From Gammaproteobacteria bacterium (lineage in GTDB: Bacteria > Pseudomonadota > Gammaproteobacteria > Chromatiales > Chromatiaceae): 64,000 bases of DNA. The notes beneath the pieces are model-generated. The model saw only the letters and a list, made by a program, of their open reading frames with translations. It did no database searches and was not told the origin of the DNA. Positions within the stretch are counted from its first letter, which is position 1. Each line of letters starts with the position of its first letter. The position numbers and the translations under genes were made by a program. Location of the stretch: NCBI GenBank assembly GCA_030065815.1, contig JASJCU010000001.1, positions 1,518 to 65,517 on the forward strand. Direction: 5' to 3'. Shown one piece after another: positions 596 through 4,181 of this stretch.

Positions 596-1255
596 GTGTA
601 CCGGTTTTCGCGGCGCGGAGAAATTGCTGCCGTGAGCGATACCGAGGGCGTCGTCAAATACACGCTCGATTACCGCGCGAGCGCACTGCCCGACGACGCC
701 GACATCGACGGCCTGTTCCACTGGTTCTTGCGCTGCCGGCAACGCCGCCTGATCGGCCGCGACCCGGAACGCTACGACGGCTACGCGTACGGCAACATCA
801 GCGTGCGTGCGGCACGCGGCTTCGTGATCTCGGCGACCCAGAGCGGCGGCGAGCCGGCACTGGCGGCCGACCGGCTGGCCTGGGTCGAGGACTTCGACAT
901 CGCCGCCAACCGCCTGCGTGCCGGCGGACCGGCGCGGCCATCGTCGGAGGCGATGACGCACGGCCAGGTGTACCGCGCACTGCCGGCCGTAGGTGCGGTC
1001 ATCCACGTGCACTCGCCGCTGCTGTGGCGGCTCGCAACGCGGCTCGGCATTCCGGTTACGCCGCCGTCCGCCGCCTACGGTACCCCGGCGATGGCGACCG
1101 CGGTCGAGCGCCTGCTGCGCGCCGACACGACGCCGACCGGACTGTTCGCGATGGGCGGGCACGAAGACGGCGTCGTCGCCTACGCCGCGACCATCGACGC
1201 CGCCGGCCGACACCTGTTCACGGCCCTCGACCGCGCCGAGGCGCTGGCAGGCTGA
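596..1255 (+). CDS. class II aldolase/adducin-family protein
   Basis: Track ORF 596..1255. It has a GNISVR...ISATQSG segment and the metal-site-like AVIHVHSP motif typical of class II aldolase/adducin folds. The start is uncertain (GTG 596 or GTG 632). Confidence 0.65.
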
Positions 1256-1270
1256 ACCGGCGTCGGGCGC

Positions 1271-2233
1271 TCAGCGCCACACGACGTCGCGGTAGTACAG
1301 CTCGAGGCTCTCCTCGGCGACGCTGCGCTGCAGCGCGTCGAAGGCCGGACCGGTCCAGCCCTTGGCCCAGCAGTCACGCAGCAGCCAGGTATTGACGACG
1401 CGCCGCCCCGGCCAGTCGAGCTGGCGGATGCGCACGTCGCGCAGCAGCGGCTTACCGGCGTACTGCGCCTGCTTCCAGTCGTAGAACAGCGTCGACTGGG
1501 TCACGCCGCGGCGCAGCGTGACACTCGGCCATGCCGCACGCTGCTCGGCATCGAGGCCGGTGAACGCGCTGATGCCCTGCACGGGGCTGAAGTCACGGTC
1601 GCTGAACGGACCACCGAGCAGCCGCGGCGCGCTGACCGCGCACAGCCCGGCCTCGACGCCGTCGATCTCGACGCTGAAGTTGTGCGCCGGCAGCAGTTCC
1701 TCGTCGACCAGTTGTGACGGCAACAGCAGCGGGCTGCCGGCGATCACCGCACCGCTCGGCGCACGGAACGTCACCTCCATGTCGAGCGCCGGCAGGCGCC
1801 CGTAGTCGGCGTCGACCTTCTCCGGCATGCCGAGCACGACACCGCCGGCGAACGCCGCCAGCGCCTTTTTGAGGTAGCTGCCGAGCCGCGTCGCGCGCTC
1901 GCCGGGGGCGGTCGCCGTCGCCTCGAACACGGACTCGGCGCCGTCGATGCACAGCGTCGTCGGCGTCGCGCGGGCGAACGCGAGCAGGCGCTCGAGCGCG
2001 CTCTTCTCGTCGGCTAGGGTACGCCCGCGCAGCGCGAGGTCGACATGCACGAACGCGTCGCCGGCGGTACTCGCCAGCAGCTGGGCGCAGTACACGCGAT
2101 CGCGCGGCTGGCCACCCAGCGCGAGCACGCGCACGCCGCCGCTGCGGCGGCGACGCTTGTCCGCGAGCGCGAGTATCGCCGTCGGATCGCGGCGGCTGAA
2201 GGCGAAGCGCGGGCGCGCCACGGCGGTCGGCAC
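1271..2233 (-). CDS. fusion protein: degenerate AAA+ (pseudo-ATPase) N-domain plus T4 gp19-like tail-tube C-domain
   Basis: The start is GTG 2233, 2 nt after the stop of the upstream tube gene (TGAcgGTG). The ATG at 2449 would overlap that gene. The N-half aligns by eye to eCIS/CDC48-type AAA modules, but Walker A is GGQPRDRV and Walker B is LCIDGAES. The C-half has AHNFSVEIDGV ... DCWAKGWTGP ... LELYY, which are tube-family hallmarks. Confidence 0.65.
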   Translation of the reverse strand: MPTAVARPRFAFSRRDPTAILALADKRRRRSGGVRVLALGGQPRDRVYCAQLLASTAGDAFVHVDLALRGRTLADEKSALERLLAFARATPTTLCIDGAESVFEATATAPGERATRLGSYLKKALAAFAGGVVLGMPEKVDADYGRLPALDMEVTFRAPSGAVIAGSPLLLPSQLVDEELLPAHNFSVEIDGVEAGLCAVSAPRLLGGPFSDRDFSPVQGISAFTGLDAEQRAAWPSVTLRRGVTQSTLFYDWKQAQYAGKPLLRDVRIRQLDWPGRRVVNTWLLRDCWAKGWTGPAFDALQRSVAEESLELYYRDVVWR

Positions 2234-2235
2234 CG

Positions 2236-2724
2236 TCAGTCCTCGATCTCGATACCACCGTGCGCGAGTACCAGTTCCTCGATCGCGACCGCGCTGCTGG
2301 TACTGTCGAGGGTCGGACCGGTGTACTTGATCGGCCAGGCATCGCTGACCTTCCAGACGACGACCTCGTTGCGGGCCTCGTCGAGCAGCTTGATCTGCCC
2401 GCTGGCGCGCTGCGGCTTGCCGCTGACCGACTGCGCGAACCACTGCCACAACGTCAGGTCGCCGGTGATGCCGCGCTTGAGCACGATGTCGGCGTAGCGC
2501 ACCAGACCGGGCAGTCGGCGCGGCGTCAGCAGGCGGTCGTTGCCATTGCGGTACGCGATCGTTTCCTGCTCGACGCTGAGGCCGCTGACCTCGCTGAAGC
2601 CTCCCTGTACCGTGGCCCCGAGGATGCCGACGTCGACGAACTCGACGAGGAAATTGAACGCCGCATACGGGTCTTCTCTGACAACCGGCACGCTACCCCT
2701 CCCCTGCGGCAGCGCCGCAGCCAT
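2236..2724 (-). CDS. phage T4 gp19-like / eCIS tail-tube family protein
   Basis: 162 aa. Motifs DPYAAFNFLVEFVDVG..FSEVSGLSVEQETIAYRNG...LPGLVRYADIVLKRGITGDLTLWQW...DAWPIKYTGP...IEELVLAHGGIE match the conserved phage tail region protein pattern. Confidence 0.8.
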   Translation of the reverse strand: MAAALPQGRGSVPVVREDPYAAFNFLVEFVDVGILGATVQGGFSEVSGLSVEQETIAYRNGNDRLLTPRRLPGLVRYADIVLKRGITGDLTLWQWFAQSVSGKPQRASGQIKLLDEARNEVVVWKVSDAWPIKYTGPTLDSTSSAVAIEELVLAHGGIEIED

Positions 2725-2778
2725 GTGCTATTTTTTCCTAACGCCCCAATTAAGGCCCAACACAGGGAAGGCTTCAAG

Positions 2779-3210
2779 ATGCCCAACCGCAGATCGTTCG
2801 ACCACATCGGCGCCTTCAACTTCCTGCTCGAGATCGAAGGCGTCACGCAGGGCCCCGTCAGCTACGTCAGCGGGCTTACAGCGCGCACCGACGTCGTCAG
2901 TTTCAAGGACGGCAGCGACACCACGGTGCGCAACCGCCCGGGACGCAACCGCTGCGACAACATCATCGTGCGCCGCGGTTACAACAACGTCGACGACCTC
3001 TACGGCTGGTACGACAAGGTCCGCGACGGCAAGGTCGAGCGCAAGGCCGGTTCGGTGATCATCGCCGGCGACGACGCCAGCGAGATCACCCGCTTCAACT
3101 TCTACGAGGCCTGGCCGTGCCGCTGGAGCCTGCTGACGCTGGATGGCGAAGACAGCTCGACGCTGCTCGAGGAGATCGAGATCGCCGTCGAACGCATCGA
3201 GAAAGCCTGA
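2779..3210 (+). CDS. phage T4 gp19-like / eCIS tail-tube family protein (second stand-alone paralog)
   Basis: 143 aa from ATG 2779, preceded by agggaagg. Motifs GAFNFLLEIEGV..VSGLTARTDVVSFKDG...IVRRGY..LYGWY...NFYEAWPCRWS...LEEIEIAVERIE. Confidence 0.8.
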   Translation: MPNRRSFDHIGAFNFLLEIEGVTQGPVSYVSGLTARTDVVSFKDGSDTTVRNRPGRNRCDNIIVRRGYNNVDDLYGWYDKVRDGKVERKAGSVIIAGDDASEITRFNFYEAWPCRWSLLTLDGEDSSTLLEEIEIAVERIEKA

Positions 3211-3266
3211 CCGCGACATCGCGGCGCGCTTCCACGGGCGCGCGAGCCCGGTTAGGCTGACACCGC

Positions 3267-4181
3267 GTGGACACCAAGAACGGAAAAACCATCTCCCTGG
3301 CGCTCGGCAGCGGCGGCGCCCGTGGCCTAGCCCACATCGGCGTGATCCGCACGCTCGAACGCGAGGGCTGGCAGATCGGCGCGATCAGTGGCAGCTCGAT
3401 CGGCGCGCTGATCGGCGGCTTCTACGCCGCCGGCAAGCTCGACGACTACGCTGAATGGGTCCAGGAGATCACCGAATTCAACGTCCTGCGCTACCTGGAC
3501 ATCGCCTGGGGCGGCGCCGGCATGCTCAAGGGCGAGATGCTGATGGAGACGCTGCAGGAGTTCGTCGGCCGCCACCGCATCGAGGACCTACCGATCCCAC
3601 TGACGATCGTCGCGACCGACGTGCTGACCCGCAAGGAGATCTGGCTGCACCGCGGCGACCTGTTCGATGCTATTCGCGCATCGATCGCGGTGCCCATGAT
3701 ATTCACACCACACACGGTGAATGGCCGGCCGCTGCTCGACGGCGGCATCCTGAACCCGGTGCCGATCGCGCCGACGCTGCAGGACCCAACCGATGCGATC
3801 TTCGCGGTCAGCCTCGCCGGCGTGCCGAAGAAGCCGGGCGGCAGCAGCCGCCGCAGTCATGTGCCGGTCGAGAAGCCAAAGCACCGCTACCACAAGGCGA
3901 TCGAGGCCTTCATCGACCAGCTGCAGGACAAGCTCGGCCTCAGCGACGATCGGGACGGTAGCGACGGCCCGAGCCTGTCGATCACCGACACCGCGCTGCT
4001 GTCGCTGGACGCGATGCAGGCGTCGATCGGGCGCTGCATGCTCGCCGCCTATCCGCCGGACCTGCTGATCGAGGTACCGATCAACACCTGCGGCGCGCAC
4101 GAGTTCTACCGTGCTGCCGAGGTCATCAGGGCCGGCGAGGAATCGACCGAGCGGGCGCTGGAGCGATTCGAACGGGGATGA
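3267..4181 (+). CDS. patatin-like phospholipase (RssA-like)
   Basis: Oxyanion motif GSGGARG, nucleophile elbow GSSIG (GxSxG) and catalytic Asp motif LLDGGILNPVP are all present. GTG start at 3267. Confidence 0.85.
   Translation: MDTKNGKTISLALGSGGARGLAHIGVIRTLEREGWQIGAISGSSIGALIGGFYAAGKLDDYAEWVQEITEFNVLRYLDIAWGGAGMLKGEMLMETLQEFVGRHRIEDLPIPLTIVATDVLTRKEIWLHRGDLFDAIRASIAVPMIFTPHTVNGRPLLDGGILNPVPIAPTLQDPTDAIFAVSLAGVPKKPGGSSRRSHVPVEKPKHRYHKAIEAFIDQLQDKLGLSDDRDGSDGPSLSITDTALLSLDAMQASIGRCMLAAYPPDLLIEVPINTCGAHEFYRAAEVIRAGEESTERALERFERG

Follow-up and report, generated by a model that had tools for sequence, protein, structure and literature searches.

A degenerate, lid-less AAA+ domain fused to a gp19-type tube protein in an orphan tube-gene cassette of a Chromatiaceae genome

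The ATPases of extracellular contractile injection systems (eCISs), typified by Afp15 and Pvc15, are multidomain AAA+ proteins associated with gp19-type tube proteins. Pvc15 is laid out as an N-terminal region (residues 1-205) followed by the domains D1 (206-434) and D2 (435-698); its D1 bears an arginine in place of the Walker A lysine and has no Walker B acid, and cargo tagged with a signal peptide is still stabilised by D2 alone, as it is by the ATPase-dead E555Q mutant (PMC11495950). The ATPase activity of Pvc15 has been inferred to need other proteins of the Photorhabdus virulence cassette (PVC), without a structure of the contact (PMC11495950), and how the loading ATPases of eCISs meet the tube and pass on their cargo is an open question. 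Here we describe a gene that bears on this interface, in which a relative of D2 and a tube domain are joined in a single chain. It lies in a 64,000-nucleotide stretch of contig JASJCU010000001.1 (positions 1,518 to 65,517 of the forward strand) in the assembly GCA_030065815.1, from a gammaproteobacterium of the family Chromatiaceae; this whole stretch is referred to below as the window. The fusion gene is one of three gp19-type tube genes at its locus, and we call the other two tube A and tube B (Table 1).

The reading frame of the fusion gene is open over 1271..2449 on the minus strand, with the stop codon at 1271-1273. We take the GTG at 2233 as the start: it sits 2 nt past the TGA of the upstream tube gene and 8-9 nt past a GAGGA, and it agrees with the N-termini of about 25 homologues of 315-322 aa that have the same architecture. 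The GC content by codon position (0.73/0.53/0.91, equal in both halves of the gene) is typical of native coding sequence here. An earlier reading of the DNA, made from the letters without database searches (the sequence-only reading), had claimed an eCIS-type AAA+ scaffold with its Walker A, Walker B and arginine-finger motifs destroyed, fused in frame to a gp19-like tube domain, and had not recognised the architecture as described. The analyses below bear out this view; the positions it gave for the two Walker motifs match ours, and the searchable literature yielded no account of a tube-AAA fusion or of an orphan tube cassette.

Table 1. Features of the fusion gene, the tube-gene cassette and its neighbours, in window coordinates
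Feature	Position	Strand	Basis or remark
Fusion gene: pseudo-AAA domain, linker and gp19-type tube domain, 320 aa	1271..2233	-	Open reading frame, Pfam, homologue lengths
Lid-less degenerate AAA+ large (alpha/beta) subdomain, residues 1-157	1763..2233	-	hhalign, AlphaFold2, Foldseek, VIA-align
Degenerate Walker A GGQPRDRV, residues 40-47	2093..2116	-	R46 at the Lys position
Degenerate Walker B LCIDGAES, residues 94-101	1931..1954	-	Asp kept, catalytic Glu replaced by Gly
Flexible linker at the AAA-lid position, residues 158-182, with conserved P-x-LLP motif	1688..1762	-	Model confidence (pLDDT), conservation
gp19/eCIS inner-tube domain ('tube C' orthogroup), residues 183-320	1274..1687	-	PF06841, Foldseek, tree
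Tube B, plain gp19-type, 151 aa, GTG start at 2691	2236..2691	-	PF06841, 132.9 bits
Intergenic region of 87 bp separating the divergent genes tube B and tube A, presumed promoter region	2692..2778		Gene coordinates only
Tube A, gp19-type, 143 aa, divergent	2779..3210	+	PF06841, 93 bits; GC at third codon positions 0.91
Class II aldolase-family gene	596..1255	+	Resident between ribE and ribBA in this genus
RssA-like patatin gene	3267..4181	+	Resident between ribE and ribBA in this genus

Pfam found nothing in residues 1-180 of the 320-aa protein, with no match to PF00004 (AAA) at E <= 0.01; the cut-off of that family (21.2 bits) is passed by the relatives P0038 (44 bits) and P0085 (41 bits) and not by the window protein. 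A profile of the N-domain family, compared with the sequences of the PDB, gave marginal matches only (E 0.03-1). The best of these were all katanin, spastin or Vps4-like AAA proteins, with GGQPRDRV placed on GPPGTGKT, a suggestive result that points to an AAA domain and is insufficient alone. The predicted structure, which the sequence-only reading had proposed as a check, has the AAA fold. The AlphaFold2 model of residues 1-180 has a mean predicted local distance difference test score (pLDDT) of 83.5 and a predicted template modelling score (pTM) of 0.80, and it is confident over residues 10-155. It comprises strands at residues 33-39, 60-65, 92-97, 130-136 and 152-155 and helices at 43-57, 73-88 and 112-126. 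This is the beta-alpha pattern of the AAA large subdomain with an alpha0 helix in front, and both that helix and the strand order 5-1-4-3-2 are those of the classic-clade AAA core. All of the top 50 Foldseek matches in the PDB were classic-clade AAA proteins, including p97/Cdc48 D1, spastin, Rpt subunits, FtsH-like proteins, Rix7 and FIGNL1. An exhaustive comparison by VIA-align ranked p97 D1 first (Z 14.0, root mean square deviation 3.2 A over 149 residues), followed by Yta7, an FtsHi motor subunit, Rix7, an i-AAA protease, NVL, VAT, NSF-D2 and Vps4, with non-classic AAA+ clades lower at Z values of about 10-12.

The closest relatives within the classic clade are the eCIS ATPases. When 1.84 billion representative sequences were searched with the N-domain profile, 257 proteins were recovered at E <= 0.001: members of its own family, then distant proteins of ~300-320 aa with the same architecture, and then many proteins of ~650-740 aa, which are matched at about residues 450-600. 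The length and layout of this last group fit Pvc15. Among 40 of these ATPases that were sampled (~680 aa), PF00004 was present in all and the winged-helix N-domain (WHD; PF22977) in 20, and one of them, P0042, is encoded in a complete eCIS locus comprising a Pvc16_N cap, sheath, gp19 tube, eCIS_core, CIS_tube, spike and gp25. Profile-profile alignment of the N-domain family to these 40 proteins by hhalign gave a probability of 98.1% (E 1.2e-13, 138 columns) and registered residues 27-164 on residues 457-598 of the ATPases, in D2. This register pairs GGQPRDRV with GPSGTGKT and LCIDGAE with LLFDEAD, places VVLGMPE at the sensor-1 strand and matches VTFRAP to VEFxxP. The homologue of residues ~27-164 is the large subdomain of D2 in Afp15/Pvc15-type eCIS ATPases, and the first ~157 residues of the protein descend from it. 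Four independent lines of evidence (PDB sequence comparison, predicted structure, the large database and profile-profile alignment) agree that the N-terminal half is AAA+, and we hold the structural identity of the fusion protein with high confidence.

The losses extend across the catalytic motifs. In place of the Walker A consensus GxxGxGK[ST], the lysine is replaced by R46 and the Ser/Thr by V47, so that GK[ST] now reads D45-R46-V47. The Walker B consensus hhhhDE is likewise broken, D97 being retained and the catalytic glutamate being G98. The hhalign register sets VVLGMPE opposite VxLTTN, the sensor-1 asparagine being gone, and RLPALD opposite FxRRxD, where the paired arginine fingers are missing and the single arginine left, R146, is unconserved across the wider family. 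The aromatic residue of the pore-loop KY is also gone. Instead of a helical lid with sensor 2, a low-confidence linker of ~25 residues (158-183, pLDDT below 50) runs from beta5 to the tube domain, and within it P168, L170, L171 and P172 are conserved among orthologues. Because the P-loop Lys/Thr, the glutamate, the sensor-1 asparagine, the arginine fingers, the pore-loop aromatic residue and the lid have been lost, canonical ATP binding and hydrolysis by the N-domain are very unlikely. The losses named by the sequence-only reading are borne out by the orthologue, family and hhalign alignments, and that of the lid is added to them. Nor does the protein have the N, D1 and D2 regions, the ~650-740-aa length and the eCIS locus of an Afp15/Pvc15-type ATPase; it contains the large subdomain of D2 alone.

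Degenerate as it is, the domain is well conserved. In an alignment of 25 orthologues (53-75% identity, all ~320 aa), L37, A38, G40, G41, R44, D45, R46, Y48, A50 and Q51 are invariant, as is the run F156-R157-A158-P159, and D97, G98 and E100 are conserved in at least 90% of the sequences. Mean column identity is 73% in the N-domain versus 72% overall. Pairwise NG86 estimates of the ratio of nonsynonymous to synonymous divergence (dN/dS) against seven relatives range from 0.22 to 0.40 in the N-domain and from 0.13 to 0.38 in the tube domain, and these values are rough, with dS near saturation and biased by GC content at third codon positions (GC3). The sequence-only reading had reasoned that degenerate motifs conserved among orthologous fusions would indicate purifying selection on a pseudo-enzyme, whereas disabling mutations would speak for a decaying gene. 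The orthologues prove intact and full-length and share the degenerate motifs, and the dN/dS values of the N-domain indicate purifying selection. The fusion gene is thus selected, not decaying, and encodes a functional and conserved pseudo-ATPase. In contrast, the relative G150 has a second fusion copy with a frameshift, with neither tube A nor tube B beside it and with a transposase nearby. This copy (L017:8688-9621 on contig C6, equivalent to L008:8001-8690), a few kb from a DDE transposase gene, is a decaying duplicate or transferred fragment.

Beyond the close orthologues there are distant fusions (P0030, P0032, P0034, P0037, P0038, P0044, P0051, P0085 and P0150). The seven that were scanned (P0030, P0032, P0034, P0038, P0051, P0085 and P0150) score above the Pfam AAA cut-off and also carry gp19. 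Database names for the fusion proteins are 'phage tail protein' or 'hypothetical' only; one member comes from a metagenome-assembled genome (MAG) of Planctomycetota and others from MAGs of Gammaproteobacteria or Pseudomonadota. GK[ST] is missing from every fusion examined, the consensus there being GG..(G)DR, with the arginine at the R46 position invariant in 13 of 13 diverse fusions and G40/G41 nearly so. Most distant fusions keep an FDEAD (FDEADALF) Walker B and the eCIS-ATPase signature LFFDEADALFGKRS, a few being variant; several also have ..D.HDRYA, and P0085 retains the pore loop SKYIGETEKN. A tree built from the N-domains, short standalone forms and the D2 domains of eCIS ATPases places the fusions on one side of a single branch (support 97/84; the split is found in 96% of bootstrap trees), a topology compatible with a single origin. 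Since the loss of the Walker A, sensor 1 and lid is common to all fusions and that of the Walker B is confined to the window's clade, the implied order is that the former three were lost early, and the Walker B and pore loop later. This refines the sequence-only reading: loss of the Walker A is a property of the whole fusion family, and loss of the Walker B of the window's close clade. The family shows cleanly how a molecular motor can turn into a pseudo-enzyme step by step.

The C-terminal domain is a tube domain both by profile (PF06841 at aa 183-316, scoring 53 bits where 28.2 is the cut-off) and by fold, as the sequence-only reading had claimed; in the full-length model it superposes on chains of Pvc1, Afp1, Pvc5 and Hcp, with Foldseek E-values down to 1.5e-8. 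The narrower family TIGR02241 (cut-off 62.4) includes tube B (111.9 bits) and tube A (80.2), and the fusion falls below it at 55.6 bits. None of the three reaches the CIS1 and CIS5 equivalogs NF053769 and NF053770 (cut-offs 220 and 260 bits): tube B scores 93.9 against CIS5, tube A 56.5 and the fusion 29.6. In a tree of tube domains they form three orthogroups, namely fusion-C (98/94), tube A (100/99) and tube B (90/94), and the homologues of tube B are 151-152 aa long. The junction of tube B and the fusion gene is a 2-nt gap or a 1-nt overlap among the loci compared, and the two genes are translationally coupled. A scan of 1100..3400 found no promoter or terminator and no match to the sigma-70 consensus. 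The listed open reading frame at 2728..3219 on the minus strand (163 aa) is a shadow of tube A (GC3 0.59 vs 0.91) and should not be annotated as a gene.

The core of the cassette is the pair of tube B and the fusion gene, which recurs in unrelated contexts. The three-gene form is found again at the loci L004, L005, L007 and L024 and a two-gene form, made up of tube B and the fusion gene, at L022 and L021. One protein, P0052, combines the N-domain, tube C and tube B in a single chain of 455 aa, its second tube domain falling in the tube B orthogroup, which gives Rosetta-stone support for a physical partnership of the fusion protein with tube B. The P0052 gene (L023:10001-11368, in the Planctomycetota MAG GCA_054873975.1) stands alone amid genes for glycosyltransferases and amino-acid metabolism. 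A complex prediction for the full fusion protein with tube B scored 0.21 against a mark of 0.32; it was run without controls and is not weighed either way.

Relative to G034, a genome of the same genus, the cassette is a ~2 kb insertion (1256..3266) exactly between the aldolase and patatin genes. These neighbours were considered as a possible effector or cargo and rejected, because G034, which has no cassette, carries glyA-nrdR-ribD-ribE-patatin-aldolase-ribBA as a contiguous run, and in G150 this rib site is likewise empty, the cassette lying instead between genes for msrA and CBS/citrate transporter. A repeat search for insertion scars gave a single result, a weak and imperfect 21-nt inverted repeat (81% complementary) at the outer cassette borders (1273-1293 and 3210-3230), which could be due to chance in DNA of 70% GC.

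No injection machine was detected around these genes. The window's genome (3.89 Mb, 98.87% complete, 172 contigs) has gp19 matches only in the three cassette genes and no match to PF04984 (sheath), PF04965 (gp25), PF04865 (Baseplate_J) or PF05943 (VipB), spike and cap families not having been searched separately; a profile search of the genome also gave no WHD match of the Afp15 type. The cassette has no tape measure and lacks the sheath, gp25/gp6-type baseplate, spike and cap that accompany a tube in an eCIS locus, and the cassette-bearing genomes G150 and G198 have no sheath match. The cassette is an orphan unit of two or three tube genes and not part of an eCIS. It is present in 5 of the 24 genomes of the genus and in none of 191 genomes from other genera in the order sample; among 400 other sampled Pseudomonadota no match to both domains was found, the profile mostly recovering ordinary AAA proteins and eCIS tubes separately, and a contig collection of 185,579 species holds the cassette in three. 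Its presence in genomes without an injection machine suggests an undescribed use of phage-tail parts. As evidence of tube-protein domestication outside any contractile machine, it is missed by pipelines that mine for contractile injection systems (CISs) and require full clusters. Related MAGs bear HKST-UBA isolate names. In the same genus, G157, G607 and G608 (L041-L043) have eCIS-D2-like matches in open frames of ~700 aa, which probably represent real ATPases of the Afp15 type; the genus may therefore include complete eCIS loci, though not in the window's genome.

How, then, does the fusion compare with described proteins? It shares with Afp15 and Pvc15 an alpha/beta core that is homologous to D2 position for position, the association with gp19-type tube proteins and, in its distant members, the subfamily motif LFFDEADALFGKRS..D.HDRYA. 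Unlike these ATPases, it has no WHD N-domain, D1 or lid, is covalently joined to a tube domain and lies outside an eCIS locus, and the D2 motifs it has lost include the Walker A, catalytic glutamate, sensor 1, arginine fingers and pore-loop tyrosine. With the tube proteins Afp1/Pvc1 (CIS1), the tube adaptor Afp5/Pvc5 (CIS5), T4 gp19 and Hcp it has its tube domain in common: all three cassette genes match PF06841, and the model superposes on Pvc1, Afp1, Pvc5 and Hcp chains. The cassette proteins differ from Afp1/Pvc1 and Afp5/Pvc5 in scoring far under the CIS1/CIS5 cut-offs and in that one paralogue has an N-terminal pseudo-AAA domain of 160 residues. Degenerate AAA domains that serve as scaffolds, such as NSF D2 and Pvc15 D1, are precedents for a fold kept for a structural or oligomerisation role after catalytic loss, and Pvc15 D1 shares with the fusion the arginine at the Walker A lysine position. 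Those domains, however, keep their lid and sit in a two-ring ATPase beside an active ring, whereas the fusion domain is lid-less and sits on a tube protein, with no active Afp15-type partner detected in the genome. In the extended ('evolved') Hcp proteins of type VI secretion systems (T6SS), a tube-ring protein is the carrier of a C-terminal toxin delivered by a complete T6SS. The fusion resembles extended Hcp in being a tube protein with an appended domain and differs from it in that the extension is N-terminal and a pseudo-enzyme and that no secretion machine is present. Pseudo-AAA domains and domesticated tail tubes are both known as kinds; what is new here is the architecture and its stand-alone context. 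The fusion also offers a small, tractable construct for structural study of the ATPase/tube interface.

We propose that the tube domains of the fusion protein and tube B would come together as Hcp/gp19-like rings or as a short tube without a sheath, with tube A as a possible accessory in the three-gene form. The pseudo-AAA domains could be displayed on one face of this assembly via the flexible linker, where they might act as a nucleotide-independent platform for binding or capping. Such a platform might retain the ATP-independent, chaperone-like substrate holding of Pvc15 D2, or might just halt tube growth, and the module would work without sheath, baseplate or spike. An ATP-independent role is proposed because of the precedent of Pvc15 D2 (PMC11495950). 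Taken as a whole, this explanation (a selected pseudo-AAA-tube fusion of D2 descent, in a cassette, with the proposed working) has in our view an even chance of being right. The specific mechanism, that of a module which sits on a sheathless tube oligomer and binds or caps independently of nucleotide, is drawn by analogy and offered tentatively, as the chances are somewhat against it. Slightly more doubtful still, though possible, is that the cassette builds a free-standing, sheathless, tail-derived structure, namely a heteromeric tube of tube B and tube C, with or without tube A, bearing a nucleotide-free AAA ring. If this were true, the structure would be a fossilised form of the complex in which the ATPase docks on the tube, put to new use in the cytoplasm as a holder, cap or scaffold for a client. 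Domesticated tail modules would then include a new class, one that could also serve as a natural model of the engagement of Afp15/Pvc15 with the tube during cargo loading.

Several points weigh against this explanation. The full-length AlphaFold2 model has a pTM of 0.56, and the mutual orientation of the two domains in it is not confident. The retained R46, G40/G41 and D97 leave room for a non-canonical contact with phosphate or nucleotide. The KY of SKYIGETEK, the pore-loop pair to which substrate holding in Pvc15 is ascribed, is lost from the window protein and kept in P0085. One cassette-bearing relative, G606 (the same as G614), has a sheath match elsewhere in its genome. Finally, the case for assembly, for a ligand and for a cellular role is indirect, and the mechanism is drawn by analogy with tube/Hcp rings and Pvc15 D2.

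The same parts could serve as a decoy against phages or CISs, in which tube mimics would co-polymerise with the tube of an invading contractile phage's tail or of some other tail-like particle and the pseudo-AAA head would block growth of the tube or sheath, thereby poisoning assembly. Such a function would suit a cassette that is patchily spread within its genus (5/24 genomes) and beyond (0/400 other Pseudomonadota with a match to both domains), that is sited differently from one close relative to another (at the rib locus in the window, at msrA/CBS in G150), that is known from Gammaproteobacteria and Planctomycetota, that has left a decayed extra copy near a transposase in G150 and that is independent of host tail machinery. 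However, PADLOC matched none of the three tube proteins, the neighbours are housekeeping genes and not defence islands, and no effector or abortive-infection partner is consistently linked. Moreover, the conservation of three tube orthogroups and an AAA scaffold over long distances seemingly exceeds the needs of a simple poison, and we consider a decoy unlikely. The residues retained in the pocket could alternatively reflect a ligand-controlled switch, whose remodelled pocket, formed by the GG..DR loop and the Walker B aspartate, would bind a nucleotide or phosphorylated small molecule without hydrolysis and so regulate tube assembly. The invariant arginine (13/13 diverse fusions), the nearly invariant G40/G41 and the conserved D97, together with the full DEAD box that distant members keep despite their loss of the Walker A, suggest selection on the pocket. 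Yet that pocket has no lid, sensor 1 or conserved arginine finger; its GK[ST] has become DR plus a hydrophobic residue, where the acidic D45 beside R46 would presumably repel phosphate, and its catalytic glutamate is glycine in the window's clade. A switch of this kind seems quite improbable to us.

It is also conceivable that the cassette is an inert remnant, now functionless, of an eCIS or prophage tail locus that has degraded, in which a decaying piece of an ATPase happened to become attached to a tube gene. Every catalytic motif has been lost and the rest of the CIS is absent from the window's genome, both of which would suit a relic, and the ~700-aa eCIS-type ATPase homologues carried by some genomes of the genus would be nearby donors. 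Against this, about 25 orthologues and distant relatives from two phyla have the full-length reading frame intact, dN/dS is well under 1 in both domains, and the degenerate motifs are themselves invariant. In addition, GC3 is that of an expressed native gene, the three-gene unit has precise boundaries in several contexts, and the truly decaying copy differs in being frameshifted and without tube A and tube B. We regard an inert relic as very improbable.

The window's genome also encodes a standalone lid-less AAA module of the eCIS-D2 type, 179 aa long, on contig C152 (L037:6796-7335, plus strand). It combines a degenerate Walker A (GGSGRDR) with an intact DEAD box and YIGETEK, matches PF00004 with 42 bits and has a GC3 of 0.87. 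The gene is syntenic in G198, G610 and G606, with 50-60% identity vs 74-86% for its neighbours. It was considered as a partner of the cassette, with which it shares 4 of 5 genomes, and rejected: it is syntenic and vertically inherited within one subclade that also bears the cassette, so that their co-occurrence is not independent evidence. Many lookalikes of ~165-245 aa (P0039, P0049, P0076 and others) appeared in the large-database search, and these standalone short forms may be a separate class of truncated pseudo-AAA proteins.

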